Source: Anaeromyxobacteraceae bacterium
GTDB lineage: Bacteria > Myxococcota > Myxococcia > Myxococcales > Anaeromyxobacteraceae
DNA: 64,000 nt
NCBI GenBank assembly: GCA_047602405.1
Contig: JASGHJ010000002.1
Location: 3,698,300 to 3,762,299, forward strand
Direction of reading: 5' to 3'
Within the stretch, counting starts at the first letter, position 1. Every line of letters begins with the position of its first letter. Shown one piece after another: positions 24,874 to 45,928 of the stretch. Both the position numbers and the translations under genes were made by a program. The notes below the pieces were generated by a model. It did not search any database. It saw nothing but the letters and a program-made list of their open reading frames with translations, and was not told where the DNA came from.

Positions 24874-25640
24874 CCGCGTTCGCCGCCGTCCTCGCGCTCG
24901 CGCTCGCCTTCTCGCCGCTCAAGGCGGAGGAAGAGAACGTCCGCGCGGGGAACGAGAAGCTCGTCGCGGGGGACCCGAAGGCCGCGCTCGAGCGCTACGA
25001 CGCCGCGGAGAAGAAGGTCGGCGCCCACCCGGAGATCGAGTACGACCGCGGCCACGCGGCCTACCGGGCCGGGCGGCTCGACGAGGCGGTCGAGCGGTTC
25101 AGGAAGGCCGCCGAGCAGGCGCCGGCGCCGCTCGCGTCCCGCGCGCTCCAGAACGCGGGCAACGCGCTCGCCGCGAAGGGTGACGAGCCCGGCGCGCTCG
25201 GCGCGTACCGCGACGCGCTCCGGAAGGATCCGGCCAACGAGGACGCGCGCTACGACCTCGAGGTGCTGCTCCGGCGGAAGGAGCAGCCTCCGCCGCCGAA
25301 GAGCGGGAAGGACCAGGACAAGGAGGGCCCGGCCCCGAAGCAGCAGCAGGGCGAGGGACAGCAGCAGGGGAAGCCCCCGCCGAAGCCCGACGACCAGGGG
25401 AAGGAGCAGCAGAAGCAGAGCCCGCAGCGCGAAGGTGAGCAGCAGGAGCCGCAGGGCGGGGAGCAGCAGCAGAAGCAGCCCCGGCCCGCGGAGGAGCGGC
25501 AGGGTGAGCGGGCGGGATCGCTCTCGAAGCAGGACGCGGAGCGGCTGCTCGACGCGCTCCGGGCGCGGGAGAAGAAGCTGCCGCAGGATCCGCGGCGGGG
25601 AAGGAGCTCGGGGAGGACGGATGTCGAACGGGACTGGTGA
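24870..25640 (+). CDS. batC: BatC-like TPR protein with Gln-rich linker
   Basis: TPRs, Q/E/K-rich tract, AERLLDAL and terminal ERDW. Confidence 0.85.
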   Translation: MTAFAAVLALALAFSPLKAEEENVRAGNEKLVAGDPKAALERYDAAEKKVGAHPEIEYDRGHAAYRAGRLDEAVERFRKAAEQAPAPLASRALQNAGNALAAKGDEPGALGAYRDALRKDPANEDARYDLEVLLRRKEQPPPPKSGKDQDKEGPAPKQQQGEGQQQGKPPPKPDDQGKEQQKQSPQREGEQQEPQGGEQQQKQPRPAEERQGERAGSLSKQDAERLLDALRAREKKLPQDPRRGRSSGRTDVERDW

Positions 25641-27528
25641 GCGGGGCTGGTCCGGCGGATCGGGCCCGGGGTGCGCCTCGGCCGGGAGCCGGGCGTGGCC
25701 GCGCGCGCTCCGCGCGGTGGCCGCGGTCGCCCTCCTCGCCGCGCCGGCGCTCGCCGCCGCGCAGGCGCGCGTGACCGCGACGCTCGACGCCGCGGAGATC
25801 GCGCTCGACGAGACGGTCACGCTCACGGTGGTCGTGCAGTCCTCCGACGCGCCGCAGGACCTCCAGTTCCCGAAGGACATGCCGTTCACCGTGCTCGGGC
25901 GCAGCCAGTCGTCCGGCTCCTCGTTCTCGCTCGGCGGCGGCGCCGGCGTGCAGATCTCGCGGACGCTCACGCTCGTGCTGCAGCTCGCGCCGAAGCAGGC
26001 CGGCCGGCTCACCATCCCGCCGATCGCCGCCATCGTGGGCGGGAGGCGCTACGCGTCGGAGCCGGTCACGCTCGACGTCCTGCCGGAGGGGCAGCGCCCG
26101 AAGGCGCAGCCCGGCCCCTCGCTGCCGCAGCGGCTGCCGGGCCCGCCCGGCCCGCGCGGCGGCGGGACCTGGCGCGGCTGGGAGCGGGACCTCCGGCTCG
26201 CGGTCGAGGCCGACCGGACCGAGGTGTGGCTCGGCGAGCAGGTGGTGGTCTCGGCCTGGTTCGTCTCTCCGGTGCCGATCGTGAACGTCGAGAACTGGAA
26301 GGAACCGCAGTTCGTCGGGTTCTGGAAGGAGCTCCTCGACTCGCCGCACCGGCTCGAGGAGCAGGTGCGGGTCATCGACGGCGTCCCGCTGCGCACGTAC
26401 CTCGTGAGCCGCTTCGCGCTCGTGCCGACGCGGTCGGGCGAGCTCACGGTCGATCCGTACCAGGCGCTCGTGAAGGTGCAGGCCGGGGTGAGCTCGCCGT
26501 TCGATCCGTTCCCGGACCTGCGGAGCGCCCGGCTGAAGAGCCAGCCGATCACCGTCAAGGTGCGGCCGCTCCCCGCCGGCGCGCCGCCCGGCTTCGCGAG
26601 CGTGAACGTGGGGACGCTGTCGCTCGAGGCGGCGGCCTCCGACGCGGCCGTGCCGGCCGGGCAGCCCGTGACGATCCGGGTGACCGCGAGGGGCGACGGG
26701 AACGTGCGGGCGCTCGCGCTGCCGCCGGTGCCCGAGCTGCCCGGGACGCGGCGGTTCGAGCCGACGCAGTCGGAGAAGGTGACGACGAAGGGCGGCCGGC
26801 TCGGCGGGGCGCGGACCGTGGAGACCGTGATCGTGCCGGAGCGGGAGGGGGAGCTCGTGGTGCCCGCGCTGAGCTGGCCCGTGTTCGACCCCGCGCGGGG
26901 CGCCTACCAGACCCTCCGGACCGAGCCGATCCACATCTCCGTGAGTCCTGCAGGTGCGGTCGCGGCCCAGACGCCCATCGCAGGGGCGAACGCGCTCGGC
27001 GCCGGGCTCCGGCCGATCCGGGCGGACGGGAGCGACCTCACCCGGACCTCGCCGCCGCCGTGGCGCAGCCCCCTCTTCGTGGCCGCGCTGGCGCTGCCGG
27101 TGCTGGGCTTCGCCGGCCTGGGCCTCGGTCTACGACTCAGGGAGCATCAGGCCGCCGGCGCCGGCGCCCGCCGCACCCGGGCCGCCGGCCGGAACGCGCG
27201 GCGCCGCCTCGCCGCCGCGCGCAGGGCGCTCGGCCGCGGCGACCGTGAGTCGTTCTTCGCGGAGGTGGAGCGCGCCCTGACCGGCTACTGCGCCGACCGG
27301 CTGCGCGTCCCCGTCGGGGGACTCACCCGTGAGGCCCTCGGGAGGACTCTCGGTGGTGCAGGTGCGCACGGGCCAGCCGTGCAGGCGCTCGACGACGCGC
27401 TCGGGGCCTGCGACGCCGCGAGGTACGGGCGCGTCGGAGTGGGCGCCGAGGAGGCGCTGCTCGGCCAGGCAGAGCAGGCGATCGCGCTGCTCGACGAGGT
27501 GGACTGGTCTTCGGGGAGGGCGGCGTGA
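25621..27528 (+). CDS. batD: BatD-like protein
   Basis: Repeated Ig-like BatD modules (GRLTIPP, SGELTV, GxGN), C-terminal TM; operon position. Confidence 0.85.
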   Translation: MSNGTGERGWSGGSGPGCASAGSRAWPRALRAVAAVALLAAPALAAAQARVTATLDAAEIALDETVTLTVVVQSSDAPQDLQFPKDMPFTVLGRSQSSGSSFSLGGGAGVQISRTLTLVLQLAPKQAGRLTIPPIAAIVGGRRYASEPVTLDVLPEGQRPKAQPGPSLPQRLPGPPGPRGGGTWRGWERDLRLAVEADRTEVWLGEQVVVSAWFVSPVPIVNVENWKEPQFVGFWKELLDSPHRLEEQVRVIDGVPLRTYLVSRFALVPTRSGELTVDPYQALVKVQAGVSSPFDPFPDLRSARLKSQPITVKVRPLPAGAPPGFASVNVGTLSLEAAASDAAVPAGQPVTIRVTARGDGNVRALALPPVPELPGTRRFEPTQSEKVTTKGGRLGGARTVETVIVPEREGELVVPALSWPVFDPARGAYQTLRTEPIHISVSPAGAVAAQTPIAGANALGAGLRPIRADGSDLTRTSPPPWRSPLFVAALALPVLGFAGLGLGLRLREHQAAGAGARRTRAAGRNARRRLAAARRALGRGDRESFFAEVERALTGYCADRLRVPVGGLTREALGRTLGGAGAHGPAVQALDDALGACDAARYGRVGVGAEEALLGQAEQAIALLDEVDWSSGRAA

Positions 27529-28274
27529 ACCTCGCCATGCTCCTCGTGGCCTCCGTCACCTCCGCGGTGCAGCCGCAGCTGGAGGCGTCCGGGCCACCGG
27601 CCGCCCGCTTCGCGGCCGCCGCCGACGCCTACCTGGCCGGCGACTTCGGCACGGCCGAACGACTCTGGGACGCGCTCGTCTCCGAGGGGTATACGAGCGC
27701 GTCGCTCCACCTGAACCTGGGGAATGCGCGGCTGCGCGCGGGCCGGAGGGGCACGGCGATCGCCAGCTACGTCCGGGCGCTCCGGCTCGACCCGGGCGAC
27801 CCCGACGCGCGCCACAACCTCGAGCTCGCCCGCGCGGCCAACGTCGACCGCCTGGTCGGGGGCACGGGACCGTCGCTCCTCGACCGCGTGGCCTCACGGA
27901 CGCCGAACGTCGCCGCCGCGCTCGCGTTCGCGGTGCCCTGGTGGCTGCTCTGGACGTGCCTGAGCGGCCGGCTCGTGACGGGGAGGCGCGCGCGCACCTG
28001 GCTCGGCGCGGGCGCGGCGCTCGCCACGCTCGGCGCGATCCTGGGCGGCTCGATCCTGCTCGCGCGTGACGCCGAGCAGCGCGAGGCGACCGCGATCGTG
28101 ATCGCACCCTCGACCGGCGTTCGCGAGGGCCCCGAGGAGGCGCTCCGCGCCACGACGATGCTGCACGAGGGGACCGAGCTGCGGGTCCTCGAGGCGCGCG
28201 GCCCTTCGGTGCGCGTGAAGCTCGTGAACGGGCTCGAGGGCTGGGTGTCGGCCCGCGACCTCGAGGCGATCTAG
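27525..28274 (+). CDS. batE: BatE-like TPR + SH3 protein
   Basis: HLNLGNA..ALRLDPGDPDARHNL, two TMs, LHEGTEL..NGLEGWV. Confidence 0.85.
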   Translation: MNLAMLLVASVTSAVQPQLEASGPPAARFAAAADAYLAGDFGTAERLWDALVSEGYTSASLHLNLGNARLRAGRRGTAIASYVRALRLDPGDPDARHNLELARAANVDRLVGGTGPSLLDRVASRTPNVAAALAFAVPWWLLWTCLSGRLVTGRRARTWLGAGAALATLGAILGGSILLARDAEQREATAIVIAPSTGVREGPEEALRATTMLHEGTELRVLEARGPSVRVKLVNGLEGWVSARDLEAI

Positions 28275-28275
28275 T

Positions 28276-29169
28276 TCAGCCCGCGGGCGCACACTGGAAC
28301 CCGAGCTGCACGCGCAGCTTGTAGGTCCCGGCCGGGAACGCGGTGGTGCGCAGGCCTCCCAGGAACAGGGCGAGGGCCGCCGCGTACTCCTGCCGGAAGA
28401 CGCGCAGGCGCACGAGCGCGTCGTGCCAGAGCTTGCCGTCGGTGGAGGCCGCCCGCTGCATGGACTGGCGCGGCTTCTCCTCCCCCGTGGCGCGGTCTCC
28501 CGGCTCCTGGGCCAGGACGGCCTTCAGGCCCAGGAACTTCTCGCCGGACTTTCTCACCGCCTCGATGGCCACCCGCTCGTGCTCGCGGATGCCCTTCTCG
28601 AGTGCCCGGCGAAAGTCTGCGGGCTCCTGTCCGGGCGGGACCGTGAAGGTGAGCGTCGCGCGGTCGGGCAGGGGCCCCGCCCGGCGGAAGAAGATCGGCG
28701 GGCGCTCGAAGACCATCCCCTTCCGGCCGATCGCCTCCGGGGCGGACCAGAGCCCGGGCCAGCGCTTGCTCCGCGGGATGAGCTTTGCCGCCGCCGGGTT
28801 CGCGAGCGCGTACGCGCCGTGCCCTGTGACCGCGGCCGCGTCCATGAGGTCGACCGACTGGTAGCCACCGCTCGGGAAGACGTTCTCGGAGCGGCCCCAG
28901 AGCTTGTTGAGGAAGCGGGCCAGCGTCGAGTTGAACTCCTGCATGAACGCGGGGAGCTCGCCCTTCGGGTCGGTGAGGACGAGGTGGTAGTGATTCGAGA
29001 GCACGCACGCGACGTGAAGCAGGATGCCGTGGCGCTCCGCCATGACGGCGAGCAGGAAGCCGAAGACCTGCCGCACCTCGGGGGTGGGCTTGAAGTAGAA
29101 GCGCCGCTCGAGACATCGATGCGTGATGAAGTGGGTGGTGCCCGGGAGCACCTGGCGTGGGGCCGTCAT
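28276..29169 (-). mobile_element. Stand-alone HUH/Y1 tyrosine transposase (IS200 TnpA/RAYT-like)
   Basis: HFITHRC, HUH motif SNHYHL, catalytic Tyr in YALANP, WP motif, C-terminal FPAGTY; no tnpB; only 1 bp from the batE stop. Confidence 0.85.
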
Positions 29170-29199: not shown

Positions 29200-29313
29200 C
29201 ACGGAAACCGCTGCGGCCCAGCGACCCTCCTCCGAGCGGGGCGTCCGCGCCGCGGACCATGCGGACGCCCCGCGGACCTCTCGGTCCGCGAACGGGACTC
29301 TCGGGCGAGTCGC

Positions 29314-30681
29314 TCAGGCCACGCGCAGCTTCGCGATGAGCGCGGGCGGACCGCCGGACCGGAAGGCCTCGAGCGCCTCGTCCGCGGGCGACCGCCCGGA
29401 CTCGGCGCGCGCGCGGAGCGGCTCGAGGAACTTGCACTCGTCCTCGCCGCTGGCGGCGCAGCAGCTCTGCCGGCGCAGGCCGTCGGCCGCGGCGGCGAGC
29501 ACCTCCCCGGCGAGCGCCTGCAGCGAGCTCCCGTCCGCCGCCCGCCCCTGCAACCCGCTCCGCCCCGCGGCGTCCATGAGCGCGCGCCGCTCCTCGACCT
29601 TGAACCGCGCCACGGCCTGCCAGGCCCGCTCGCGCGCGGCCTGGTCGTAGAGGATGCCCTTCCACAGCGCGAGCAGCGCGCGGGCGTGGGCGTGGTCGCA
29701 GCCGTCGGCGGCGCGCACCTCCACGACGCCCTTCACCCGGACCTCCGGGAAGACGACCGTGAGGTGATCCTCCCAGTCGCTCTGGGTCGGCCGCTCGCCG
29801 TCGATGCCGCGGAGCATGAAGTCCCGGAACGTCGCGCCCTTCGGGTCGAGGTAGCGGTCGTGGCGCCGCACGAAGATCATCGGGACGTCGAGCGCCCACT
29901 CGACGTACGCGCGGTAAGGATCGTCGAGGAAGCCGGGCGCGAAGGCGAAGGCGAGGAGCCCGCAGCGGGCCGGATCGGTCTCGTTCCAGACCGCCGTCCG
30001 GTAGGACTTCCACCCCACCTCGCGGCCGTCGATGATCGGCGAGTTGGCGAAGAGGGCGACCACCGCGGGCTGCACGGCGAGGGCGGTCCGCAGCTTCTCC
30101 CCCATGTCGCGCGCGTCCGAGAAGTCGAACGACGCCTGCGCCGACGCGGTCATCGCCATCATGTCCTCGCCGAGCCGGCCGTGCGCGGCCAGCCAGGGGC
30201 GCATGATCTTGTAGCGATCCTTCGGCATCCAGGGGTTCGACCGGGGCGTGCCGAAGGGCCGGTAGCCGGTGGCGAGGAGCTCGACCGAGAGTTCTTCGCC
30301 GATGTGCGCGCAGTGGTCCTCGAGGTGCTCGCGCAGCTCCTCCGCGGCCGCGTGGACGTCCGGGAACGGACGGCCGGACAGCTCGAGCTGGCCCCCCGGC
30401 TCGAGCGAGACCGTGAGTCCTTCTCGCTGCGCCGCGATGATCCGGTCCTCTTCCATGAACGGCGTGAAGCCGAAGCGCCCGAAGCCCCTCAGCATCGCGG
30501 CGACGCCGGCAGGGCCCTCCCAGGCGACCGGGTCGGTCGTGCCCGAGCGCATGAGCACGACCTCGTGCTCCAGGCCGACCTTCCAGCCCTGGCGGGGGCG
30601 CTCCCGTGCACGGAACCAGGCGACGAGGTCGTCGGGCCCGCGCACCGGCGGGGTCTCACGCGTGCGGGCGTCGAGGGACAT
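29314..30681 (-). CDS. gshA: Glutamate--cysteine ligase (GCS2/plant-like)
   Basis: VGLEHE, SLEPGGQLELSG, MPKDRY, ALFANSP, HLTVVFPEVRVK, EVRAAD. Confidence 0.92.
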   Translation of the reverse strand: MSLDARTRETPPVRGPDDLVAWFRARERPRQGWKVGLEHEVVLMRSGTTDPVAWEGPAGVAAMLRGFGRFGFTPFMEEDRIIAAQREGLTVSLEPGGQLELSGRPFPDVHAAAEELREHLEDHCAHIGEELSVELLATGYRPFGTPRSNPWMPKDRYKIMRPWLAAHGRLGEDMMAMTASAQASFDFSDARDMGEKLRTALAVQPAVVALFANSPIIDGREVGWKSYRTAVWNETDPARCGLLAFAFAPGFLDDPYRAYVEWALDVPMIFVRRHDRYLDPKGATFRDFMLRGIDGERPTQSDWEDHLTVVFPEVRVKGVVEVRAADGCDHAHARALLALWKGILYDQAARERAWQAVARFKVEERRALMDAAGRSGLQGRAADGSSLQALAGEVLAAAADGLRRQSCCAASGEDECKFLEPLRARAESGRSPADEALEAFRSGGPPALIAKLRVA

Positions 30682-30786
30682 GGGGACGCGGAATCTACCC
30701 GCGGGTGACGCGCTCCGCCACGGGCATGTCCGGGGTGCCCGTGCGTTCTACCCTTGAACGACTCTGGGACCTACGAGGCGATCCGG

Positions 30787-30815: not shown

Positions 30816-30892
30816 GAGCTTTTTCGGGGATTTCTCGCCCCTTGGACGTCCGAGAGTCGTTCGCCGCGCCTCCACCCCCGCAAAGAGCCACC

Positions 30893-33800
30893 ATGACCCG
30901 CCCGTTCCGGCCCCTCGCCACCATCGCCCTCGTCGCCGCGCTCGCGCTCGGCACGGGCGCGCACCTCGTCCGCGCCGAGGCGCGGCAGGAGGAGGACCGC
31001 GGGCGCACCGCCGCGGAGCTCGCCTACCGGGAGAAGGTCCCGTCCCAGGCCCGCCCCGACGCGGCGGGCGAGTACAAGCTCGACAAGCTCCAGATCCTCT
31101 CGAAGGTGATCCTGTCTCTCAAGGACTCCTACGTCGACCCGACCCGCATCGATCCGAAGGCGATGGTCGTCTCGGCGCTCGAGATGGTCGAGAAGACCGT
31201 CGCCGAGGTGATGGTCCAGGGCGACGCGAAGTCGTCGAAGCTCGTCCTCACCGTCGGCTCCGCGAGCCGCGAGCTCGACATCTCGGGCGTCGACTCCATC
31301 TGGAAGATCCGCACCGTGCTCGGCGACGCGATGGGCTTCATCCAGGAGCACCTCGTCGCGCACGACGACCTCCGGCAGATCGAGTACGCCGCCGTGAACG
31401 GCATGCTCTCGACGCTCGACCCGCACACCATCCTGCTCGAGCCGAAGGCCTACAAGGACATGAAGACCCAGACCCGCGGCGAGTTCGGCGGGCTCGGCTT
31501 CGTCATCGGCATGCGCGACGGCAACCTCACCGTGATGCGCGTGCTGCGCGGCACGCCCGCCCAGAAGGCGGGCATCAAGGCGAAGGACGTCATCACCAAG
31601 ATCGAGGAGCAGTCCACCGCCGAGATGGACGTGAACGACGCGGTCGACCGCCTCCGCGGGAAGCCCCGCACGCCGGTCGCGATCACCATCGCCCGCAACG
31701 CACAGGACGCGAAGCGCCTCACGCTCGTCCGGGAGATGATCAGAATCGACACCGTCCCGCAGGCGAAGCTCCTCGAGGGCAACGTGGGCTACCTGAAGCT
31801 CACCGGCTTCTCGGCGAACTCCCGCGCCGACGTCGAGCGCGTCGTCCAGGAGGAGCGCCAGCAGGCGGGCGGCAAGCTCGCCGGCCTCGTCCTCGACCTG
31901 CGCGGCAACCCAGGCGGCCTGCTCGAGCAGGCGGTCCAGGTCTCGGACCTCTTCCTCTCCTCCGGCACGATCGTGAAGACCGTCGGCGGCGGCCGCACCC
32001 TCGAGCTCAAGGAGGCGAGCGCCGACTCCGACGACCTCGCGAACCTCCCGCTCGTCGTGCTCGTCAACAACGGGTCGGCGTCCGCGAGCGAGAATCGTGG
32101 CGGGCGCGCTCAAGAACAACGGCCGCGCCCTCGTCATCGGCCGCCAGACCTTCGGCAAGGGCTCGGTGCAGGTGCTGCAGGACTTCGCCGAGCCGGGTCG
32201 CCCGGGCGAGGAGGCGGCGCTCAAGCTCACCATCGCGCAGTACCTCACCCCGGGCGACGTCTCGATCCAGGAGGTCGGCGTCACCCCCGACGTGCTGCTC
32301 CTCCCCGGCCGCGCGCTCAAGGAGCAGGTGAACTTCTTCGCCCCGCCCCGCTCGATGGGCGAGGTCGACCTCGACCGCCACCTCTCGAACCCGTCGCAGC
32401 GCGACGAGGAGCAGGAGCGCGCCGAGGCCCGCAAGCGCCGCGTCGAGAAGTCGGCGCTCGAGCTCCGCTACCTGCTCGACGAGAAGGAGGACTCGGTCGC
32501 GAAGGCGCTCAAGAAGGCCGCCACCGAGGACGCCGCCGAGAACGCCCACACCGATCTCACGCCCGAGCAGGTCGAGGACGAGGAGGCCGACGCCGACCCC
32601 GACCGCGTGGTGGAGGACTACCAGATCAGGTTCGCGCGCGACCTCCTGCTCAAGGCCCCGTACAACGATCGCGCGCGCATGCTCGAGGGCGCGAAGACGC
32701 TCGTCGCCGAGCGCCACGAGGACGAGGAGCGGCGCCTGGAGGCCCGGCTCAAGGACATGGGCCTCGACTGGTCCGAGCCCGCGAAGACGCCCGCCGGCGC
32801 TCCGAAGGCCGTCGTCACCTTCTCTCCGCCGGCGGCGAAGGACGCGCGTGCGGGCGAGGTCTACCCGTGGACGGTGACCGTCGAGAACCGGGGCGACGCG
32901 CCGTTCCGGCGCCTGCGCGCCTGGACCTCCGCCGAGAAGAACCCGCTGCTCGATCGCCGCGAGTTCATCTTCGGCACCGTCCGCCCGGGTGAGCGCCGCT
33001 CGTGGACCGTGCCCGTGCGCATGCCCCGCAGCCTCGACAGCCGCCGCGACGAGGTGTCCCTCCGGCTCGAGGACGACTCCGGGAAGCCCATCCCGGAGGT
33101 CGCGACCTCGGTCGGCGCGGTCGAGATCCCGAAGCCGCAGTTCGCGTTCAGCGTGCAGGTCGAGGACGCCGCGGGCGGGAACGGCGACGGCCTCGCGCAG
33201 CGCGGCGAGACCTTCGCGTTCCGCGTCGACGTCCGGAACGCCGGCTCCGGCGCCTCCGGCCGCAAGACCTACGTCGCGCTCCGCAGCCTCGGGGACGACA
33301 AGCTCTTCGTGAAGAAGGGCCGCGAGGTCATCGGGACGCTGAAGCCTGGCGAGGCGAAGACCGCCCGCCTCGAGGTCGAGCTGCGCAAGGGCTCGCACGC
33401 CGAGAACGTGCCGTTCCGGCTCGCCATCGTGGACGAGAAGACCGACGAGTACCTCGTCGACAAGATCGAGTGGCCGGTCGCGAAGGACGCGACGCCGCGC
33501 ACGCCCGCCTCGGGCGCCGTCCGGCTCGACGCCGACGTCACCATCCACGGCGGGGCCTCCGAGACCTCGCCGGCCGTCGCGTCCGCGAAGAAGGGCGCCG
33601 TGCTGCCCGTCGACGCCCGCTTCGGCGACGCGTACCGGGTCGAGTGGCAGAAGGGCCGTTTCGGGTTCGTGCCGGTCGCGCAGGCGAAGCCGGTGAAGGC
33701 GCCCCGCTCCGGCGCGGTCGCGATGGCCTGGCAGCGCGAGCCGCCGCGCATCGCGCTCGCGCCTGACCCGGCGAAGGGCGCGCCCGTCGTCGAGGGCGAC

Positions 33801-34106
33801 ACGATGAAGCTCTCCGGCTCCGCCACGGTGCCGGCCTCGGCGGACGACTCGACGCGGCTCCGGGACGTCTTCATCTACGTGAACGACCAGAAGGTCTTCT
33901 TCCGGGTCGTGCCGGACGAGAAGGCCTCCACCCGCCTCGACTTCCAGGCCGACCTGCCGCTCAAGCCCGGGCAGAACACGGTGACCGTCGTGGCCCGCGA
34001 GGACGAGGAGTTCCAGACTCGCCGCTCGCTCGTGGTGTTCCGGCGCGCCCCGCCGGCCGTCGCGCAGGACGGCTCGCGCGAGCCGCCCAAGGCGCAGGCG
34101 CAGTAG
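30893..34106 (+). CDS. S41 (CtpA-like) serine peptidase with PDZ and C-terminal beta domains (MXAN_5808-like); frameshift at ~32093
   Basis: LDPH, FGGLG, DLRGNPGG, SASASE|IVAGAL, TFGKGSVQ; removing one A from gagaatcgtg joins ORFs 30842-32992 and 32097-34106. Confidence 0.9.
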
Positions 34107-34116
34107 GCGCAGCCCG

Positions 34117-34181
34117 AAAACGACGCACGGACCCAGGGAAGGCGCGGCGCTCCGCCCCCTCCGGGGAGTCCGTGCGCTCGT
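34117..34181. terminator. Long hairpin downstream of peptidase; U-tract on minus-strand side
   Basis: cgcacggac (34124-32) pairs with gtccgtgcg (34168-76); AAAA at 34117-20. Confidence 0.45.
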
Positions 34182-34185
34182 CCTG

Positions 34186-34339
34186 ACGACTCTCGGTCGT
34201 CCAACATGAACGACTCTCGGTCGTGCAGCTCGCCTGACGACTCTCGGTCGTCGAAGGTCGACGACTCTCGGTCGTCGAAGGTCGGCGAACGACTCTCGGT
34301 CGTCCAAGGGCCGGGGGGCCCGGAACGACTCTCGGTCGT
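34186..34339. repeat. Array of six identical 15-bp quasi-palindromes ACGACTCTCGGTCGT with 9-21 bp spacers
   Basis: Copies start at 34186, 34210, 34237, 34261, 34289, 34325; spacers 9, 12, 9, 13, 21 bp. Confidence 0.97.
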
Positions 34340-34493
34340 CGAGGAGTGCCCGGAACCCCCCGCCGTGATCCGGCCGATACCGCCCGACACCGCCCTGGCG
34401 AGCGTGCGCTCGGCAGGTGGTATCGGCGACCTGCCTCACTCGCCCGTCCCCAAGTTCGCGAAGCGCCGGATCGCCCGGTAGAATTCCGCTCGC

Positions 34494-37400
34494 ATGGCGG
34501 AGGCTCCGAAGACCGCCTCCGTCCCATCCTCCACCTCCGGGAAGAGGACAGGGTCGGGGTTCGAGCTGCGCCTCGAGCGCGGGACGGCACACGTGCGCCT
34601 CGCGCGCGTGCCGGTCGTCGACGGCCTCGAGCTCGAGGTGCTCGACCTGCTCGTCCCGGACGTCCGCTTCCCCTTCGACGTCGCCGCGGGCTCCGGGCAG
34701 TTCCGGCACCGACTCTCGGACCTCGACGAGCTCGGCGTCGCCGCCGCGCCCGAGCTCGCGGAGCGCACGGTCGCCGCCGCGGGCCCGGAGGCGCTCGGGC
34801 TCCTCGACCTCCGGATCGCGTTCCGGGACGGCTTCGCCGAGCTCGCCGGCCGGCTCGCGGGCGGCACCCGCTTCACGCTCCGCGCCGGGCTCGTCCCCGC
34901 CGGCGACCGCGGCGTCGCGGTCGTCCTCCACGCCCCGCGCCTCTACGGCCCGGCCGCCCTCCCCGAGGGCGCCCTCGTGCACGCCGGCCGCCGCCTCCTC
35001 GCGGCGCTCGGCGAGGACGCCTTGCCCGAGGATCCCGTCTCCCGGCTCCTGCGCCGCGTGCTCGCGCCGCGCGGCTGGAAGATCCCGCGCGCCGTCGACG
35101 TCCGGCTCGCGCGCGCCGAGATCGTCGCGGGCGCCGCGCGGCTCGGCTGGTCGCGCGCGGCCGTGCCCGCGGCCGTCTCCGCCGACCCGGACCTCCTCGC
35201 GGCCGAGGAGGGCGCCCGCACCTTCGCCGCCGCCGAGGCGCTCCTCGAGCGCGGCGACCACGAGGCCGCCCGCGAGGCGTACCTCGCGACGCCCGCCGCG
35301 GCCGGCCACCCGTTCGCCGCCGAGCGGCTCCTGGGCCTGCTCGCGCTCGACGACCGCTTCCACGACGAGGCCCTCGACCTCGCCCAGGCCTGGCTCGCGC
35401 GCCGCCCCGGCTTCCCGGCCGCGCTCGGCGCCGAGGCCGCGGTGCGCATCGCCCGCGGCGAGGAAGCCCGCGCCGCCCGCGCCCTCGCGGAGCTCGCGGA
35501 GGGCGCCGCCGCACGCGGCGAGGTCTTCTCCGCGCTCGCCGCCGCCGAGACCGCGTTCGGCCTCACCGGCGCGGACGCCGCCGTCGCGCGGCGCGCCGCC
35601 GAGGTCGCCCTGCAGGTCCGCCGCGACCACGTCCCCGCCCTGCGCGCGCTGCGCGACCTCGCCCTCGCCGCCGGCGACCGCGAGGCGCTCGTGCGCGCGA
35701 GCCGCCGGCTCGTGGCGTACGACGCGGACCCCGCCCACAAGGCCCGCGCCCACGCCCAGCTCGGCGAGCTCCTCCTCGGCACCGACCCCGCCGCGGCGCG
35801 CCTCCACCTGGACCAGGCGCTCCGCCACGCGCCCGACGAGCCCCAGACCCTGCGCTCGCTCGCCCGCGCCTGCGAGGCGGCCGGCGAGCACCTCCGCGCG
35901 GTGCGCGCGCTCGACCGGCTCCGCGAGCTGCACCTCGCCCACGGCGACCGCGCGCTCGCGGCCGGCGCCGCCTACGAGGCCGGCGCGCTCTGGGACGGCC
36001 CGCTCGACCACGCCGAGAACGCGCTGCTCCGCTTCCGCGAGGCGGCGGAGCTCGCGCCCTCCGCCGAGGCCCACGAGCGCGCCGCCGGCGCCGCCACCCG
36101 CGCCGGCCAGTGGGCCGAGGCCGCCGACCACCACGCCGCGGTCCTCGCCGCGCTCGCCCGCGGGGCGCCCGGCCCGGCCGGCCTCGCCGCGCGCACCCGC
36201 GTCGCCCTCGCGGCGATCGCCGAGGAGCGCCTCGCCGACCTCCCCGCCGCGGCGGCCCACCTCGAGGCTGCGGTCGCGCTCGAGCCCGACCGCGGGGACC
36301 TGTGGCGCCGGCTCGCCGCCCTCGATCGCACCCTCGGCCGCACCGCCGCCCTCGCCGCCGCGCTGGAGCGCGTCGCCGCCCTCTCGCCGGACCTCGCCGA
36401 GCGGGCCGCCGCGCTCGCCGAGGCCGGCGAGGCCGCGCTCGCCCTCGGGCTCCCCGCCGAGGCGCGCGGCCGGTTCGTCGCGGCGCTCGCCGCCGACGAG
36501 CGGAACCGCACCGCCCTCGACGGCCTCGCGCAGCTCGCAGCCGCGCGCGGCGACGCCGCCGCCGAGCGCGACGCCCTCGCCCGCCTCCTGCCGCTCGCCG
36601 CCTCCGCCGACGAGACCGCCACCCTCCAGGACCGGCTCGCCGAGGCCTGCGAGAAGGTCGGGGACCTCGCCGGCGCGCAGCGCGCCCTCGCCGCCGCGCG
36701 CGCCGCCGCGCCGACCGCGGCCCGCCTCGAGGCCTCGCTCCGCCACGCCCGCCGCACCGGCGACGTGCCCGCCCACGCCGCGCTCCTCGCCGAGCGCGCC
36801 GCCGCCGCCGCGGCCCGCGGCGACGCGGCGCTCGCCACGACGAGCTGGCTCGAGCGGGCCCGCCTCCTCGGAGCGACCGATCCCGCCCAGGCCCAGGCGG
36901 CGCTCGCCGAGGCCCGCGCCGCCGCGCCGGGCGATCCCGAGGTGCTCCGGGCCCAGGCCGCCTTCGGCGAGGCGAACCGCGAGCCCCGGCTCGCGCTCGG
37001 CGCGCTGCGCGCGCTCCTCGCCCAGGATCCCGCCGACGCCTCCGAGCTCGAGGTCCGCGCCGGCCGCGCGGCGCTCACCGCCGGCGAGCCGACCGCCGCC
37101 CGCGAGCACGCCGAGCGCGCCCTCGGGCGCGACGCGCCCGGCGCCGGCGAGCTCCTCGCCGACATCCTCGACCGCACCGGCGACGAGGCCGGCCGCGCCG
37201 AGCTGCTCGAGCGGATCGGCCGTCCCCTCGAGGCCGCCCGCCTCCACGAGCGCCACGGTGACCGGCCCCGTGCCATCGCCGCCCTCGAGCGCGCCGCCGC
37301 CGACCCCGCCTCGGCCTCCGAGGCCCTCGGGCTGCTCGCGGAGCTCCGCCTCGCCGAGGGAGACCGCCGCGGCGCCGCCACCGCGCTCCTCGCGCTCGCG

Positions 37401-40400
37401 GCCCGCACGCCCGGCCGCGCCGGCGCGCGCCTCGCGCTGCGCGCCTTCGAGGCCGGCGGCGACGCCTCCCGGGCGCTCGACCTCGCCACCGAGCGCGACC
37501 CGACCTTCGCCCCTGCCCGCGCCCGCCGCGCCGCCCTCCGGGCCGACGACCCGCGCGGCGCGCTCGCCGACGCCGAGGCCGCGCTCGCGGGCGACGAGCT
37601 GCCCCCCGCCGAGCGGATCGGCCTCGTCGCGATCGCCGCCCGCGCCGCCGAGGCACTCGGCGACGACGACCGCGCCGGCGCGCACCTCGCCACCCTCGCG
37701 CGGGCCACCCCGGACGACGCCTCGGTCCTCCGCCGCCTCGCGGCCCTCGAGCGCCGCGCCGGGCGCGCCGAGGCGCTCGCCGCCACGCTCGAGCGGCTCG
37801 TCCCCTTCGCGACGCCCGCCGAGGGCGTCGCGCTCCGGCTCGAGCGCTCCGAGCTCCTGGCCGCCTCCGACCCGGCCCGCGCCGCCGCGCTCGCCGAGGA
37901 GGCCCTCGCCCTCGACCCCGACTCGACCCCCGCGCTCGCGGCCCTCGCGTGGCCGCCGCGGTCCGCCGGGAGCCCGCCCGCCGTTCGCGCCGACCGGCTC
38001 GGCCGCCTCGCCGCCCGGCCCGACGTCCCCGCCGCCGAGGCCGCCCGGGCCCACGGCGAGCGCGCGCGGCTCCTCGCCGGGCTCGGCGACGCCGCGGGCG
38101 CGCTCGAGGCCGTCCGCGCCGCCACCGCCGCGGGCGCCGTCGAGGACGAGCTCACGCACGCGCTCCGCGCCGACCTCGCCCGCCGCACCGGGGATCGCGC
38201 CGAGGAGGCGCGGGCCCTGCTCGCGCTCGCGCACGCGGCCCGTCGGCGCGGCGAGCCCACCGCCGGCGAGCGCCTCGCCGAGGCCGGCCTCGCCGCCCGC
38301 GCGGCCGGCGTCGACGGCGCCGAGGACGCGCTCCTCGCCGCGCGCACGGCCGGCGTCGAGAAGGAGACCGCCCGGCCGGTGCTCGAGGCGCTCGTCGAGC
38401 TCGCCCGCGCCCGCGGCGACGGCGCCGCGGAGCGCGAGGCCCTCGCCGCCCTCGTGCCCCACCTGCCCACCGGCGCGCGCCCCGAGGTGCTCGTCCGGGT
38501 GGCCCGCCTGGCGCTCGAGGCCGGCGACGCCGCCTTCGCCCGGGCGGCCGCCGACGAGGCGCGCACGCTCGCGCCGCGCGACCCCGTCGCCGTCGAGTGC
38601 GCGCGCGCCGCCGCCGCCGCGGAGGGCGACCACGCCGCGGTCGCCGAGCGCCTCGACGAGCTCGCCGCCCTCGAGCCGGCGACGGCCGGCGCCCGCCAGC
38701 TCGAGCGCGCCCGCCTGCTCGCCGCCCTCGGCCGCGCGGAGGACGCCGACCGCGCCTTCGAGGCCGCCCTCGCCGCGCTCGCCCCCGACCGCGCGCTCGC
38801 CGACGAGCAGGTCCGGCACCGCCGCGCCGCCGGCCTCGCCGACCCGGGCGCGCCGCTCGAGGCCTTCGCCCGCCGCGCCGGGGAGCCCCGCGTCGCCGCC
38901 CGCGCCCTCCGCACCGCCGCGGCCCTCGCGCTCGAGGCCGGCGACTGGGACGCCGCGCTCCGGCGCGCCCGCCGCACCGCGGCCCGCACCCAGGACGATC
39001 CTTGCTTCGCGGGCCCGCTCCTCGCGCGCATCCTCTACCTGCGGGGCTCCGCCGCCGAGGCGCTCGTGCTCCACCGGCGCCTCCTCGACGCGCCCGAGGG
39101 CGCGCTCGCCCCGGAGGACCGGGTCGCGGTCCTCTCCCAGGCCGCCGAGCTCGCCGAGGATCTCGGCGACCGCGAGCTCGCCGCGTCCGCGCTGACCCGC
39201 CTCCTCGCGCTGCGCCCCGCCGACGTCGACGCCGCCGGGCGGCGCTTCGCGGTCGACCCCGACCGCCGCCGCGCCATCGAGGGGCTCGCCGCCGCGGCCG
39301 ACCGCACCCGCAACCTGCACCGCCGCGTCGCCGCGCTCCAGAAGGCCGGCGAGGCCGCCCTCACCGAGCTCGAGGACCGCGCCCTCGCGGACCGGCTCCT
39401 CCGCCGCGCCCGCGCCGAGGCCGAGGTCGACCCGGCCCTCGCCGCCCGCACCGCCCGCGAGCGCGCGGCGGTCGTGCGCGCCGCGCTCGGCGTCGGCTCC
39501 GACGCGTTCCTCGACGCCCTCGAGGAGTCCGCCGCCGCGGTCCAGGCGACCGGCGACCGCGCCGGCGCCCGCGCCCTCTACGCCGAGACGGCCGCCCTCC
39601 TGCGCGAGCGCGGCCAGCTCGCCGACGCCGCCCGCCTCCTCCTCCAGCTCGACGCGCTCGCCGCCGCCGACGGCGACTTCGACGGCTCCGCCGCGTACGC
39701 GCGCGAGGCGGGCCTCGCGCTCCGCGACGCCGGCCGCGCCGGCGAGGCCGCCGAGGTCCTGCGCCGCGTCGTGGCGACGAACCCGGGCGACGCCGAGGCG
39801 TTCGCGGCCCTCGAGGAGCTCCTCGCCTCCGGCGGCGACGCCGGCTCCCTCGTCGAGCTCCTCTCGCTCGCCGCGGCGAGCGCCGCGCCCGGCCCGGACC
39901 GCGCCGCGCTCCTCGTGCGGCTCGCCGAGGTCCACGCCCGCGCGGACGACCGGGTCGCCGAGGAGGGCGCGCTCCGCTCGGCCCGCGAGCAGGTGCCCGG
40001 CCACGCGGTCGCGACCGAGCGCCTGCAGGCGCTCCTCGCCGCCGAGGAGCGGTTCGGCGAGCAGGCCGAGCTCCTCCTCGAGCGCGCCGCGGCGGAGCCC
40101 TCCGCCCGCGCCGCGCTCCGCAGGGAGGCCGCGGCGCTCTACTCGCGCTCGGCCGATCCCGGCGAGCGGGCCCGCGGCCTCGACCTCCTCGTGGAGGCCG
40201 CCCGCGAGAACCCCGAGGATCTCGACGCGCTCCGCGAGGCCTCCCGCGCGCTCGTGGCCGCGGGCAGGCGCGAGGAGGCGGTGCCGTTCCTCTCGGCCAT
40301 CGTGCTCGCCAACCCGGACGACGAGGCCGCCGCCGCGCTCCTCGCCGACGCCTGGGCCGACCGCCCGCTCGAGCAGGCCGGCCTCTTCCTCTCCCGCGCC

Positions 40401-43400
40401 GCCGCCGCGAAGGGCGAGCTGCGCGCCTTCCGCCTCGGCGAGGCCGCGAAGGCGCTCGCCCGCGCCGGCGAGGAGGGCCGCGCCCGGGAGACCCGGCTCC
40501 TCGCGTTCGAGGCCTGGCCCTCCGACACCGCCGGGTTCACCGCCGCGCTCCGCGAGGCCGCCGGCGACGCCGACCGGCTCGACCGCGTCCTCGCCGCCCG
40601 CGCCCGCGGCGTGCCCGCCGAGGCCGCCGCCTGCCACCGCGCCCGCGCCGACGCGCTCGTCGCGGTGGGCGCGCTCGAGCGCGCCGCGACCGCCTACGAG
40701 GAGGCGCTCGTCGCCGCCCCGGACGACCCGGTCCTGCTCGCCGCGCTCGCCGCCACGCTCGCGGCCGCCCGCGGCGACGCCGCCGCCTCCGACGCCGACC
40801 ACCGCCTCGTCGCGCTCTCGGACGCGAAGCCGGGCAGCGTGCCCCCGTCCGCGGAGTCGGCCTCCCGCTTCCGCCTCGGCATCGCCGCCTGGGCCGACGG
40901 CCGCCCCGCCGACGCCATCGGCGACCTCGAGCGCGCCCTCCTCCTCACGCCCTCCGATCCGCGCGCCGGCTCGGCCTGGACCGCGCTCGCCGACGGCCAC
41001 GCCGCCCTCGGCCACGGCGAGGCCGCCCTCGCCGCCGCCCGCGGGCGGGCCGACCGCGCCGTCGCGCTCGGACTCGGCCCCGAGCGGCGCCTGGCCCTCG
41101 AGGCCGGCGCCGCGCTCGCGGCCCGCTTCGCCGACGAGGGGCCCGACGCCGCCGAGGTCCTCGACGCGCTCCTCGCGGTGCGGGTGCAGGCGGGCGATCC
41201 GCCCGAGGAGCTCGGCGAGCTCGCCCGCCGCGCGGCCGCCGCGCTCGAGCTCGCCGGCCAGCCGGTCCGGGCGAAGGTCGCCCTCGCCCGCGCCGGCCTC
41301 ACCGCCTCGGGCCCGCTCGCGGCGCCCGCCGTCCCGGCGGAGCTCGAGGTCGAGGTCGAGCCGCCCGCGCCCGCCGCCCCGGCCGCCCAGACCGCCCCGG
41401 AGCCCCTCGCCGCTTCGGCGCCGCCGGCCGCCGCCTTCGGCGCGGGCCGCGTGCAGGAGGCCGGCGAGCGCGCCCTCGCGGCGACCGAGCCGGCCGAGCG
41501 CGCCACCCGCTTCGTGGAGCTCGCCGAGGAGCTCCACCGCGCCGCCGCGCCGGACGAGGAGATCCGCTCGGCGCTCGACCTTGCCGCCGACGCCGACCCC
41601 GACGCCCCCGGCCCGTGGCGCGCCCGCGCCCGCATCGAGGGGGAGCTCGGCGACTCGGAGGCCGCCGCGCGCGCGCACCTCGCCGTCGCGATCCGCGCCG
41701 AGGGCGAGGAGGCCACCGCCGCCGCGCTCGAGGCCGCCCGGCTCTTCGCCGAGGCGGGCGACCACGTCGACGCCGCGCGCGCCTTCCGCGCCGCCCACCA
41801 CGCCGCCCCGGAGGCCGTGCCGGTCGCGCTCGCCGAGTCCGAGGAGGCGCTCGCCGCCGGCGACGCCGCCGCGGCCGCCGAGAAGGCCCTCTCGGTGCCG
41901 CTCGAGGTGCTCCCGCCGGTCGCCCGCTCCGGCCACCTCCGCCGCCTCGCGCAGGCGCTCGACGAGGCCGGCCGCATGACGTCCTCCGACGCCGTCTACG
42001 CCGACCTCTTCCGCGAGGACCCGGCGGACGCCGTCGCCTTCACCCGCGCCGCGGACCGCGCCTTCGAGCGCGGCGGCGCCGACGCCTGGCTCGAGGCCGC
42101 CGCGACGCACGAGGCCGCCCTCGGCAGCTGGGGCGACGCCGATCGCCGCCGCGACCTGCGCTACGCCCGCGGCGAGGTGCTCGCCGCGGCCGGCCGCCTC
42201 GAGGAGGCCCGCGCCGCCTACCTCGGCGCGCTCGAGCTCGACCCCACCCACGAGCCGACCCAGACCTCGCTCGCGGCGCTCGACGCCCGCACCGACGACT
42301 GGGCCGCGCTCGCCGCCCGCGTCGCCCGGGAGGCCGCCGACGCCGGGACCGGCGACGCCGCCGGCCTGCACCTGCGCGTCGCGCGCATCCTGCACGACCG
42401 GCTCGACGACGGGGCCGGCGCGATCCTCTCCTACCGCGCCGCCGTCGAGGCCGCGCGCGAGAGCCCCGCCCCCGCCGCGCGCCGCGTCCAGGAGGAGGCC
42501 GAGGCCGCCCTCCACGCGCTCGGCGCGCCGATGAAGGCCGCCGAGCCGGCGGCCCTCGACGACTCCGAGCCCACCGCCGAACACCTGCTCGAGGCGCCCG
42601 AGGGTGACCCGGTGGCCGAGGTGCTGCGCGCCCAGGCCGACGAGGCGACCGGCGTCGCCCGCGCCGAGCTCCTCGAGCGCCTCGCCGGCCACCTCGAGCG
42701 CGCCGGCGACCGCGCCGGGGCCGCCGACACGCTCCTCCTCGCGCTCGCCGCCGACCCGCACCGCGAGCTGACCCACGCCTGGCTCTCCGGCCTCGTCGAG
42801 GACGACCCCGAGCGCCTGGAGCGCGCCCGCGCCCTGCGCGCCGAGGCCGGCCTGCCCGAGGAGCGCGAGGAGCGCTCGACCGGAGACTTCCCGCCGGTCT
42901 TCCGGACCGACCGGACCACCGGAGACTTCACGGCCCCCGACCCCGAGGTCGAGGGCCGGGAGACGAGGACGACCGGAGACTTCCCGCCGGCGGAGGGAGG
43001 GGCGGATTCGGATCCGGAGACGGTTCCGGAGACGGATTCGGATTCGGAGACGGATTCGGAGACGGATTCGGAGACGGATTCGGAGACGGAATCGGAGACG
43101 GATTCGGAGACGGAGACGGAGACGGATTCGGCCACGGATACGGATCCGGAAACGACTGCCGCAGCGGTTTCGGATGCCGCCCCGGACCCCACTCCCACGC
43201 CCGAGCGCTCCACCCTCGACGACTTCCCGGAGTCCGCGCTGGAGGAGGCGCTCGCGGCAGGGCTCAGCCGGTCGGCGAGGCCGAGCCCGTCTCCGATTCC
43301 GATTCCGTCTCCGATTCCGTCTCCGATTCCGTCTCCGTCTCCGTCTCCGATTCCGTCTCCGTCTCCGTCTCCGATTCCGCCTCCGTCTCCGATTCCGCCT

Positions 43401-45928
43401 CCGTCTCCGATTCCGCCTCCGTCTCCGATTCCGTCTCCGTCTCCGATTCCGTCTCCGATTCCGATTCCGTCCCCGTCTCCCTCTCCTCCCCCCTCCCGTC
43501 CCCGCGCTCGATTCTCGATCTCGACCTCTCTCCCACTCCCGATCCCGATCTCGCTCTCGGTCCCGCTCCCGATCCCGAATTCCCCCCCCGCGAGGACCGC
43601 TCGACGCTCCACGGCTACTCCTCCCTCACCCCCGCCGACCTCCCGCCGCTCTCCCTCGAGGAGCCGCCCGAGCCCCCCGGCCCGGCGACGAAGCCGATCA
43701 CCTCCATCACCGGCCCCTTCCCGCCGCTCTCCCCCGGTGAGCTCTCCTCTGATCTCGCCTCCGACCTCGCCTCCGACCTCTCCGCCAGCGCCTCCGCCCC
43801 GGCCAGCTCGCCGGCCGACCTCGAACCCGACCCCGACCTGGCCGCCGCGCTCGACGCCTTCGACGCGCCCACGCCCGCTCCCGCCTCCGAGCCCGCGAAC
43901 TCCGCGCCCCCCGTCCTCGCCCGCCCGCCCGAGCAGCGCACCACCGGCAACTGGCCGCCTCCCCAGCCCGTCGCGCCTCCGCAGCTCGCGCGGCCGCCCG
44001 CGCAGCGCACCACCGGCAGCTGGCCTCCGCCCTTGCCCACCACCGGGCCCGTCGGTCCGCTCACGCCGTCGCCCATCCCGCCCAGCGCCGACCCGCTCCT
44101 GCCGGAGTCCGAGGGCCCGATCGGCCCGCTGACGCCGTGGCCGATCCCGTCCCGCCCGACGCCGCCGCCGCCGCGCACGACGGGCGCCTTCCCGCCACCG
44201 CTCCCCGAGGGCCGGCCCACGGGCAGCTGGCCACCGCCGGTGCTGAAGCGCGCCGAGGGCCGTCCGGTGCACCCCACCGACCCCTTCACGCCCACCGCGC
44301 CGGACGACGCCACGGTGCCGCCCGCGCCGCCGCGCGCGGTCCCGCCGCGGCTCGAGCGCCGCCCGCCCGAGCTCCAGCCCCGCACGAAGACCGACGCCGC
44401 GTTCCCGCCGCCGCCGCGGCCGTCGACCGATCCCGGGCTCAAGGCGCCCGCCGCCCCGCCGCCGCTCCCGCGCGAGGAGCGCGCGACCGGTGCGTGGCCG
44501 CCGCCCCTGCCCTCGATGCGCGCCGGCCGCCCGCCGGGGCAGCTCGCCGCGGCCGGGCGCGAGGCGCTCGAGGCCGGCGAGCTCGACGAGGCGCGCCGCC
44601 TCCTCGAGGACGCGTTCCAGCGCGAGCCGACCGACCTCACGGTCGCGCGCGACCTGCAGCGGCTCGCCGAGCAGCAGGGCCGCGACGAGGACTACCTCTC
44701 GCTCGGCGAGCTCCTCGCCGACGCGCTCGCCTCGTACGACCCGGCCGCCGCCGCCGCGCGCTACCGCCACTTCGCCGAGCTCGCGCGCCAGCGGCTCGGG
44801 CGCGACGAGAAGGCCGCCGGCTACCTCGAGAAGGCCATCGCGCTCGTGCCCGACGACGCGGCCGCCCGCCGCGAGCTCCTCGAGCTGTGGGCGTCGCGCC
44901 CCGACACCGCGCCCCGCGCCCTCGCGGCGTGGCTCGAGGTCGTGCGGGCGGACCCCGGCGACGGCCAGGCCCTCGCCGCGGTGGTCTCGCTCACGAGCGG
45001 CCTCGCCGCGACCTCGACCCGGCTCGACGCCGGCCGGCTGCAGGAGCGCGGCCGGATCGCCTCCGCCCTCGGCGCGGTGGTCGCCCCCGGCCGCGTGCCG
45101 CCCGCCCGCCCCGCCCCGGTGGCGCGGGCGCTCCCGCCCGGCCTGCGCGAGAAGGTGGCGCTCCCCGGCGCCGGCGGCCCGCTCGCGCGGCTCATCGCCC
45201 TGCTCGCGCCCTGGCTCGAGACGCTCTTCCCCGCCGACCTCGCGCGGCGCGGGGCGAGCCCCGCCGACCGCATCGTCCCGCCGCGCGGGGCCGCGCTGCG
45301 CGGCGCCCTCGACGCCGCGGTGATCTCGCTCGGCGCCCGCTCCTACGCGGCGTTCCTCACCGAGCGGCCCGGCGTCGACGTGGCCATCGAGAACACCCAG
45401 CCGCCGTCGATCGTCGCGACGGCGGGCGTCGAGGGCCTGCCCGACCCGGCGCTCGCGTTCCTCGCTGCGCGGTCCATCGATCTCCTCACCCAGGGCTGGG
45501 CCCTCATCGGCAAGTTCGCGCCCCGCGACGTCGGCATCCTGCTCGAGCTCGCCTGCCGCTACGCCGGCGGCAGCCCGCCGTCGCTCGGCCTGCCCGAGCA
45601 GCGCGCCGGCGCCTTCCTGAAGGCGCTCGAGGCCTCGGTGCCCGCCGCGACGCGCGCCTCCGCCACCGCGCTCGCCGGGCCCGCCGCGGCCGAGCTCGCG
45701 AAGGCGGACCCGCGCAGCTTCTCGACGGCGCTCCGGCGCACGGCGAACCGCGTCGCGCTCGTGCACGCCGGCGACCCGGGCGCGGCCCTGCTCGTCCTCG
45801 CCCAGCTCGAGCGCCGCGGGCCGGGCGATCCGCTGCCCCGCCCGCTCGAGCACGCCGACGCGCGCGACCTCGCCGCCTTCGCGCTCACCGACCTGTTCCT
45901 CGACCTCCGGGTCGCGGTGCGCGGCTGA
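34494..45928 (+). CDS. Giant (~3,800 aa) Ala-rich TPR-like solenoid protein with disordered acidic/Pro-rich linker; frameshift at ~43266
   Basis: ORF 34494 has TPR-like helices; adding one base at ctc^agccg gives LEPVGEAEPVSDSD in the frame that stays open into ORF 44033-45928. Confidence 0.8.
43003..43470. repeat. Two intragenic hexamer-repeat tracts, (GAGACG/GATTCG)n and (CCGTCT/CCGATT)n, in near-inverted orientation
   Basis: ~43003-43150 encodes ETDS repeats; ~43288-43470 encodes SDSV repeats. Confidence 0.9.

Follow-up and report, generated by a model that had tools for sequence, protein, structure and literature searches.

A six-copy repeat array in an Anaeromyxobacteraceae genome probably consists of stray end-motif copies of a RAYT-like transposase element

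Six identical 15-mers in the 64,000-nt stretch of Anaeromyxobacteraceae DNA that we analyzed (the window) are probably stray copies of a TIRtron end motif that, judged from sequence comparison, would have arisen by local re-copying driven by a transposase encoded 5 kb away. A RAYT-like HUH/Y1 element (TIRtron) of an Anaeromyxobacter-like genus has as its inverted end motif CTCT[CG]GG, the non-palindromic core of the array. Throughout this genus the core bounds transposase genes in inverted orientation, and stray copies, whether alone, in pairs, or in tandem, accumulate within ~7 kb of them. The first-pass annotation of the window overlooked the transposase gene at 28276-29169, the motif copies at 30756 and 30846, and those lying in coding genes. 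The array, its neighbors, and the transposase gene are located as follows (window coordinates).

28276..29169, minus strand: gene for a RAYT-like HUH/Y1 transposase (TIRYT) of 297 aa with intact H60-Y-H62 and Y120-ALANP
29278..29304, minus strand: left end of the element, with two CCGAGAG cores at -115 and -135 from the start codon, then a GC hairpin
30756..30772, plus strand: motif copy upstream of the peptidase promoter region
30846..30862, minus strand: motif copy in the peptidase 5' leader, with 28 nt in common with inverted array copy 5 (one mismatch)
30893..34106, plus strand: gene for an S41 peptidase of the MXAN_5808 family, the upstream neighbor of the array
34118..34183, plus strand: GC-rich hairpin without a U-tract after the peptidase stop codon, its 5' arm a decayed seventh motif copy
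34186..34339, plus strand: six-copy array of the transposon end motif, with exact 15-mers at 34186, 34210, 34237, 34261, 34289, and 34325
34494..44132, plus strand: gene for a giant TPR protein, the downstream neighbor of the array

The six ACGAC-TCTCG-GTCGT units reported by the first-pass annotation are all present, exact, and in place, and its spacers and start-to-start spacings (24/27/24/28/36 bp) were reproduced. The 9-nt spacer start common to copies 3 and 4 and the 4-nt flank common to copies 1 and 3 were likewise borne out; copies 3 and 4 form a tandem duplication of 24 bp. In the 6.16-Mb genome analyzed (G000) the exact 15-mer occurs only as the six array copies, and allowing one mismatch adds the minus-strand site at 30846 plus one site on another contig. 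With up to two mismatches the window holds nine matches versus a shuffle mean of 0.44. Note that the six-copy form is known from a single assembly, of a strain for which no matching read set was found. A one-mismatch match at G000:C2:1117154, located in what we take to be 23S rRNA sequence, was put down to chance. The sister genome G010 has, at the corresponding position, an almost intact version of the seventh copy, the one that forms the 5' arm of the hairpin.

The array spacers are 9, 12, 9, 13, and 21 nt long. The 21-mer is unique in the genome, the short spacers are common genome-wide, and two resemble local flanks; an origin of the spacers as foreign DNA was rejected. The unit folds into a 5-6-bp hairpin (-3.6 to -4.9 kcal/mol), as had been proposed, but the hairpin proved incidental: only 3 of 163 motif copies in the genus can form the 5-bp stem, which is therefore an accident of this lineage. 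The array region as a whole folds with z = -2.5. An Rfam scan of 33800-34800 gave no match near the gathering score (best E 1.6), and a Guanidine-II match with 15 of the 32 bits needed was dismissed as chance. A promoter and terminator scan around the array found none, and the analysis revealed no function of the array for the host. RNA runs X19 and X20 contain just minor shares from other organisms and leave the array uncovered.

The genes scanned at 25-44 kb are batD, batE, transposase, gshA, peptidase, and TPR, and some of them show peculiarities. An extra A at about 32093 splits the peptidase frame in the catalytic Ser motif; it is absent from G010 and from contigs of two runs and is probably an assembly error. 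It puts a near-match of the motif in register, the added base itself not belonging to the motif. The middle of the giant TPR gene (36000-42000) is of 83-84% GC, low in complexity, and fast-diverging, and dN/dS against G010 is 0.51 over the first 1,455 codons. The first ~160 codons of the listed batD open reading frame (25180-25760) show non-coding codon use, the true start lying later.

The identity of the core rests on 57 near-full-length transposase loci of the genus, one of them a duplicate. A left-end core CC[CG]AGAG is found at -111 to -125 in 49 of the 57, and an inverted right-end core at +150 to +420 in 44, often with tandem copies outward. The bottom strand of the array unit is the right end of several family members, such as L111 and L122. 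Of 37 genus genomes, 35 carry transposase homologs, between 1 and 13 each. The relaxed 14-mer ACKACTCTSGGWCG has 150 occurrences, clustered, in 26 of the 37 (its reversed control has none), and outside the family it was met in 3 of 50 genomes, once in each. Copies per genus genome range from 0 to 28; G000 has nine, eight of them within 7 kb. The motif consensus from 163 copies at 39 loci is AA[CT][GT]ACTCT[GC]GGTCGG. Tandem clusters of two to six copies make up 40 of 112, with 21 and 25 bp the commonest spacings; as such clusters are common, six copies are the upper end of the normal range. Spacings across motif clusters run from 18 to 84 bp, which agrees with the earlier claim that the array is not helically phased. 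Taken alone, the array is ordinary for a TIRtron element.

The window transposase gene, ~5 kb from the array, is a syntenic single copy in G000 and G010, and a genome scan for its close relatives returned one locus. It is intact and under purifying selection (dN/dS 0.31), with H60, H62, Y120, N124, and P125 invariant across 16 homologs. The protein has an altered C-terminal motif and sits on a long branch in a quickly made, midpoint-rooted tree of 56 rows (duplicate L113 left out) that serves for grouping only. Profile matches were to NF047646 (E 1.3e-11) and Y1_Tnp (E 0.001), both below the cut-off, 4ER8 (E 0.013), and IS200-type transposases (E 0.0009). A Pfam search for helix-turn-helix (HTH) domains at E<=1 with five transposase proteins gave no match, and a single-sequence PDB search returned repeat-protein noise only. 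Because the transposase stop codon abuts that of batE, the usual right end of the element is lost; the inverted repeats at fixed distances hold for the family, and the window gene keeps the left end only. The array carries the C variant of the core, as does this left end. The left end scores below 9.5 on a matrix made from array-type copies and its inner four bases differ; left and right ends also differ in other family members. Elsewhere in the genome (G000:C2:581814-582687), one of four recent transposase copies is split into two frames.

The history of the locus was read from relatives. G010, ~92% identical over 19 kb, has the same transposase gene, and among 19 other peptidase-end loci it alone has an array, of four copies (two exact, two variant) with other spacers. 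The first-pass annotation had called for a comparison of unit conservation and copy number among relatives: the sister keeps the units, with changed spacers, but has four copies rather than six, and the array is missing where the locus has no transposase gene. Four sludge or biofilm runs carry a shorter array of the G010 type; a metagenome pattern scan for the spacer gave 0 matches. The strict core was found at the locus in 4 of the 19 relatives: G010, G013, G014 (beside its own transposase), and G001 (a lone match). In G013 the peptidase-TPR gap holds a related motif as an inverted pair, and directly after batE lies an unrelated, 40%-identical transposase of another clade (L158, G013:C17:1336-2217). 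A relaxed scan of the locus added single two-mismatch matches in G022 (in the gap, inside a small open reading frame) and G007. In 12 further loci the transposase gene was found in none and a good motif in one (G103). The nearest outgroup, G045 (74-78% identity), has the same gene order, a batE-gshA distance of 22 bp, and neither transposase gene nor motif at the locus. The gene and all motif copies at the locus arose after the split from G045.

The peptidase-TPR gap collects inserts. That of L005 (G020) holds another repeat array, of GTGGACGTG / GTCCAGGAC type, and a small conserved open reading frame lies in the gap of G002, G014, G017, and G022. The spot after batE, used in both G013 and G000, may be an insertion hot spot at convergent gene ends.

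Comparison of individual copies points to copying between sites. Array copy 5 matches the inverted site at 30846, 3.4 kb away, over the 28 nt noted above (one mismatch), flanks included. The G010 ortholog of that site has different flanks, which match the last copy of the G010 array over 21 nt. Moreover, the last copy of G000 and its G010 ortholog are unlike at three positions, yet each matches other copies of its own genome. As copies are more alike within a genome than orthologs are between genomes, the invariance of the unit is explained without selection, and the purifying selection deduced by the first-pass annotation from invariant units need not follow.

To place stray copies relative to transposase genes, 136 of the 150 14-mer matches were mapped in 19 genomes, leaving out 14 matches in seven fragmented genomes. 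The resulting 99 clusters, numbers that close kin (G003/G007/G015 and G000/G010) inflate so that independence is overstated, included 25 element ends, 26 clusters at 0.5-10 kb from a transposase gene (1.9 expected), and nine at 10-40 kb (6.1 expected). The other 39 had no transposase gene within 40 kb on their own contig, many assemblies being fragmented. Cluster numbers drop beyond 6-7 kb from the gene. A rule that stray copies face the transposase gene was rejected, with 34 clusters facing it and 32 facing away. In G000 halos of this kind surround two of the seven transposase genes, both single-copy, with 13 and 10 cores inside 8 kb where 0.16 are expected; the remaining five have 0-1 cores and no halo, and four of these five are near-identical recent copies with different inner sequence. 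Halos also lie beside unrelated genes. The second settled transposase, L057 (G000:C2:3481500-3487600) with its counterpart L235 (G010:C10), has its own halo of triplet arrays. In both genomes the L057 right-end array lies in frame within a sensor kinase and encodes PSQS-like repeats; this end array is an insertion, distinct from the substitutions described below.

Two further kinds of motif site were observed. A lone strong copy behind a hairpin (G000:C1:1978066 / G010:C5:404702) has no transposase remnant within 20 kb and lies upstream of what are presumably a small Fur-like gene and a bacterioferritin-like gene. In G007, inverted motif pairs 95-130 bp apart (G007:C1:252236-252345, 2424816-2424924, and 260483-260613) resemble miniature non-autonomous elements, and a pair of sites in batD (27239/27341) has the same orientation and spacing.

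The motif also occurs in frame inside host genes, at about seven sites around the transposase: about four in batD, one in batE, two in gshA, and one in the TPR gene.

near 26939, minus strand: further weak batD motif
27130..27146, plus strand: weaker in-frame motif in batD, codon 652, with rare CGA, kept in G010
27239..27255, minus strand: in-frame motif in batD, codon ~689, perfect in G010 and with two mismatches in G000
27341..27357, plus strand: in-frame motif in batD, codon ~723, with rare codons AGG ACT
27657..27673, plus strand: in-frame motif in batE, codons GAA CGA CTC TGG GAC; outgroups have other codons and no indel
30281..30297, minus strand: in-frame motif in gshA, GAA GAA CTC TCG, with Ser where most orthologs have Gly
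30407..30423, minus strand: weaker in-frame motif in gshA, codon 88, with rare GGA, kept in G010
34707..34723, plus strand: in-frame motif in the TPR gene, with rare CGA in G000 only, one synonymous step from G010

These sites were gained by substitution without indels and use rare codons, and most are kept in G010; orthologs align through them gap-free with ordinary codons. The peptide at the batE site is A-E-R-L-W-D in G000, G010, and L189 and A-A-R-[AG]-W-E in G045 and L188. Rare GAA, CGA, GGA, and ACT codons number 17 in 2,740 here, and all seven that are common to G010 fall in motif-like sites. The string of a rare codon, CTC, and [TA][CG]G is met five times here and five times in the 979,576 codons of the genome, a count that may include these. 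With a matrix built from 14 non-coding copies only, five coding sites take genome-wide ranks 10, 11, 12, 17, and 33, and among 3,078 two-kb bins the three that are richest all fall at 26-36 kb in the window. Per 100 kb, in-frame coding matches number 64 here, 35 in G010, 0.82 at 32 other transposase loci, 0.80 in 26 control loci, and 0.44 genome-wide, figures for which the pattern was widened and the 11-kb interval picked after the sites had been seen, and for which the classifier, of limited sensitivity, missed some true sites. A general in-frame enrichment near transposase genes was rejected (0.82 versus 0.80 in controls). The in-frame effect is strong and special to this locus; as the other 32 transposase loci show no enrichment, this part is locus-specific and may need selection. 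The perfect 15-16-base matches in batE and batD favor patch conversion, and the single-step changes in gshA and the TPR gene favor drive or selection. The routes that remain for the coding sites are patch conversion, transmission bias of the kind described for uptake sequences in PMC2817400, and binding-site selection.

How might a resident transposase produce such a pattern? As described in 10.1101/279083 and PMC8266576, HUH/Y1 enzymes nick single-stranded DNA and transfer strands. By analogy, the enzyme, acting mostly in cis, would bind the motif and nick one adjoining strand. Re-priming or transfer of the free end at the same site would give a tandem stutter with spacers of uneven length, and transfer to a nearby match would copy short patches with their flanks and homogenize the copies. 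Less firmly, the same process, or its transmission bias, may have pushed near-matches in flanking genes toward the motif, with only the frame-keeping changes surviving. In that case the array, lying in an intergenic gap after a hairpin, would be a tolerated by-product. Another known route is template switching between inverted repeats. We infer transposase-driven local copying from the sequence patterns. A broader claim, that a resident HUH nuclease turns near-matches within a few kb into its own motif without indels, also in coding genes, we advance tentatively; equally tentative are its proposed routes, short-patch strand transfer or the use of motif-bearing alleles as preferred gene-conversion donors.

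An element-derived motif might alternatively serve a domesticated transposase that binds ~15 selected sites over 8 kb and loops or regulates gshA, peptidase, and TPR for the host. The intact single-copy gene with its long branch, changed C-terminal motif, dN/dS of 0.31, and lost right end would suit this reading, as would the seven rare codons common to G000 and G010 that all lie in motif-like sites and the changes at gshA 86-88 and TPR 73 that look like single steps toward the motif. Two sites frame the peptidase promoter, and the 30846 site and the array bracket the peptidase gene as element ends would. We nevertheless consider domestication unlikely: copy number, spacing, and orthologous unit sequence differ between G000 and G010, relatives do without gene and sites, halos also lie beside unrelated genes, and altering conserved residues would be an odd route to a regulon.

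Readings that dispense with the transposase fare worse. The unit is a dyad, and the lone strong site kept in G010 upstream of the small, presumably Fur-like and bacterioferritin-like genes could be read as an operator, the array then offering a host transcription factor a multivalent binding site or a decoy. The first-pass annotation offered a multivalent protein-binding array as one of two options. Conservation lies in the non-palindromic centre and not in the arms; the six other ACGAC-N5-GTCGT dyads in G000 all have different centres. As the core also marks transposase ends genus-wide and the sites appear together with the transposase, we judge an operator highly improbable. An array acting as RNA, either as a protein-sponge sRNA or as a 3' region pairing with the peptidase leader, has a very slim chance: the region folds, and the leader site finds a complementary stretch in the array (28 nt of copy 5 in G000, 21 nt of the last copy in G010), but this complementarity is explained by DNA-level copying, copies lie in either orientation to transcription, the hairpin is not conserved, and Rfam gave nothing better than E 1.6. 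The probable one-base error in the peptidase gene and the single assembly of the strain could raise suspicion of an assembly artifact or chance. This is scarcely credible, for unlike spacers rule out a collapsed or expanded tandem, and a related array is present in G010 and in four independent runs.

Set beside known systems, the element belongs to a kind that is known but unstudied, and it is neither a classical REP element nor a CRISPR array. The TIRtrons described in PMC3733652 likewise have a HUH/Tyr transposase gene (TIRYT) between inverted repeats at fixed distances, and their repeats are also found outside the element, singly, as dimers, or in groups. Unlike those, the core here is CC[CG]AGAG and the unit lacks the GGGGWSAS consensus, which in PMC3733652 is found in some TIRs only and is not required of all TIRtrons; moreover, the family here is small and local (~7 kb of the gene) rather than genome-wide, and the right end is lost. 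The main text of PMC3733652 does not name Anaeromyxobacter or describe in-place gain inside genes. The class 2 TnpA-Y1 proteins of 10.1101/279083 share the Y---NP signature, a long C-terminal tail, the lack of a canonical REP, and several divergent copies per genome. As defined there, subclass 2.1 has a C-terminal HTH or DnaA_C-like domain, of which Pfam found none here, and subclass 2.3 has a 55-residue insert between HUH and Tyr in ~325 aa, for which the 297-aa window protein, with 58 residues from H62 to Y120, has no room; its tail differs as well, ending in FPxGTY.

Classical REP elements and REPtrons, as described in PMC8266576, share a related enzyme, short repeats clustered in intergenic gaps, and, broadly taken, the way of working. 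The first-pass suggestion of a REP cluster was right in that the array is an end-motif cluster tied to a RAYT-like transposase, but there is no classical REP hairpin: the unit lacks a GT[AG]G foot at a conserved hairpin, and copies number tens at most and are not genome-wide. Intragenic REPs, in the accounts available, are insertions, whereas the batD, batE, gshA, and TPR sites are substitutions. DNA uptake sequences of Neisseria and Pasteurellaceae are described in PMC2817400 as non-palindromic motifs that accumulate in coding sequence with altered amino acids, as here, by mutation and recombination and not by insertion; they are genome-wide and depend on biased uptake, whereas here 8 kb around one transposase gene are affected, and the likeness is an analogy only. 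CRISPR arrays also combine identical repeats with unlike spacers, but their repeats measure ~24-48 nt according to PMC3733652 and their spacers are regular and non-repetitive; the repeat here is 15 nt and its 9-21-nt spacers are uneven and partly copies of each other or of local flanks, in agreement with the first-pass exclusion of CRISPR. As to cas genes, the interval scanned, 25-44 kb, holds the six neighbors named above. On balance the array is a real feature and is likely an orphan TIR cluster.

Our literature search found no paper on these elements in Anaeromyxobacter (the figures and supplements of PMC3733652 and 10.1101/279083 may list the motif), none on in-place gain of a transposon end motif, and no TIRYT biochemistry in print, repeat binding and cutting included. 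A preprint proposing TnpA-REP-driven change of neighboring genes carries, in the version available, a note weakening its claim.

This locus bears on how REP-like repeats spread. It is a dated natural experiment, with an empty outgroup (G045), two descendants, an independent insertion (G013), one motif, and a scale of ~7 kb. The surprise lies in the in-frame sites, an end motif gained by substitution, which insertion models do not predict. If selection made these sites, the transposase would have been domesticated as a DNA-binding protein. If instead the enzyme writes them, it would be a mutational force acting locally on host proteins and a candidate tool for writing sequence, and the rewriting, if true, would be the natural work of a site-directed sequence writer and a cis-limited molecular drive, like that of uptake sequences but with one enzyme at one locus, by which adjacent host proteins would have been changed.
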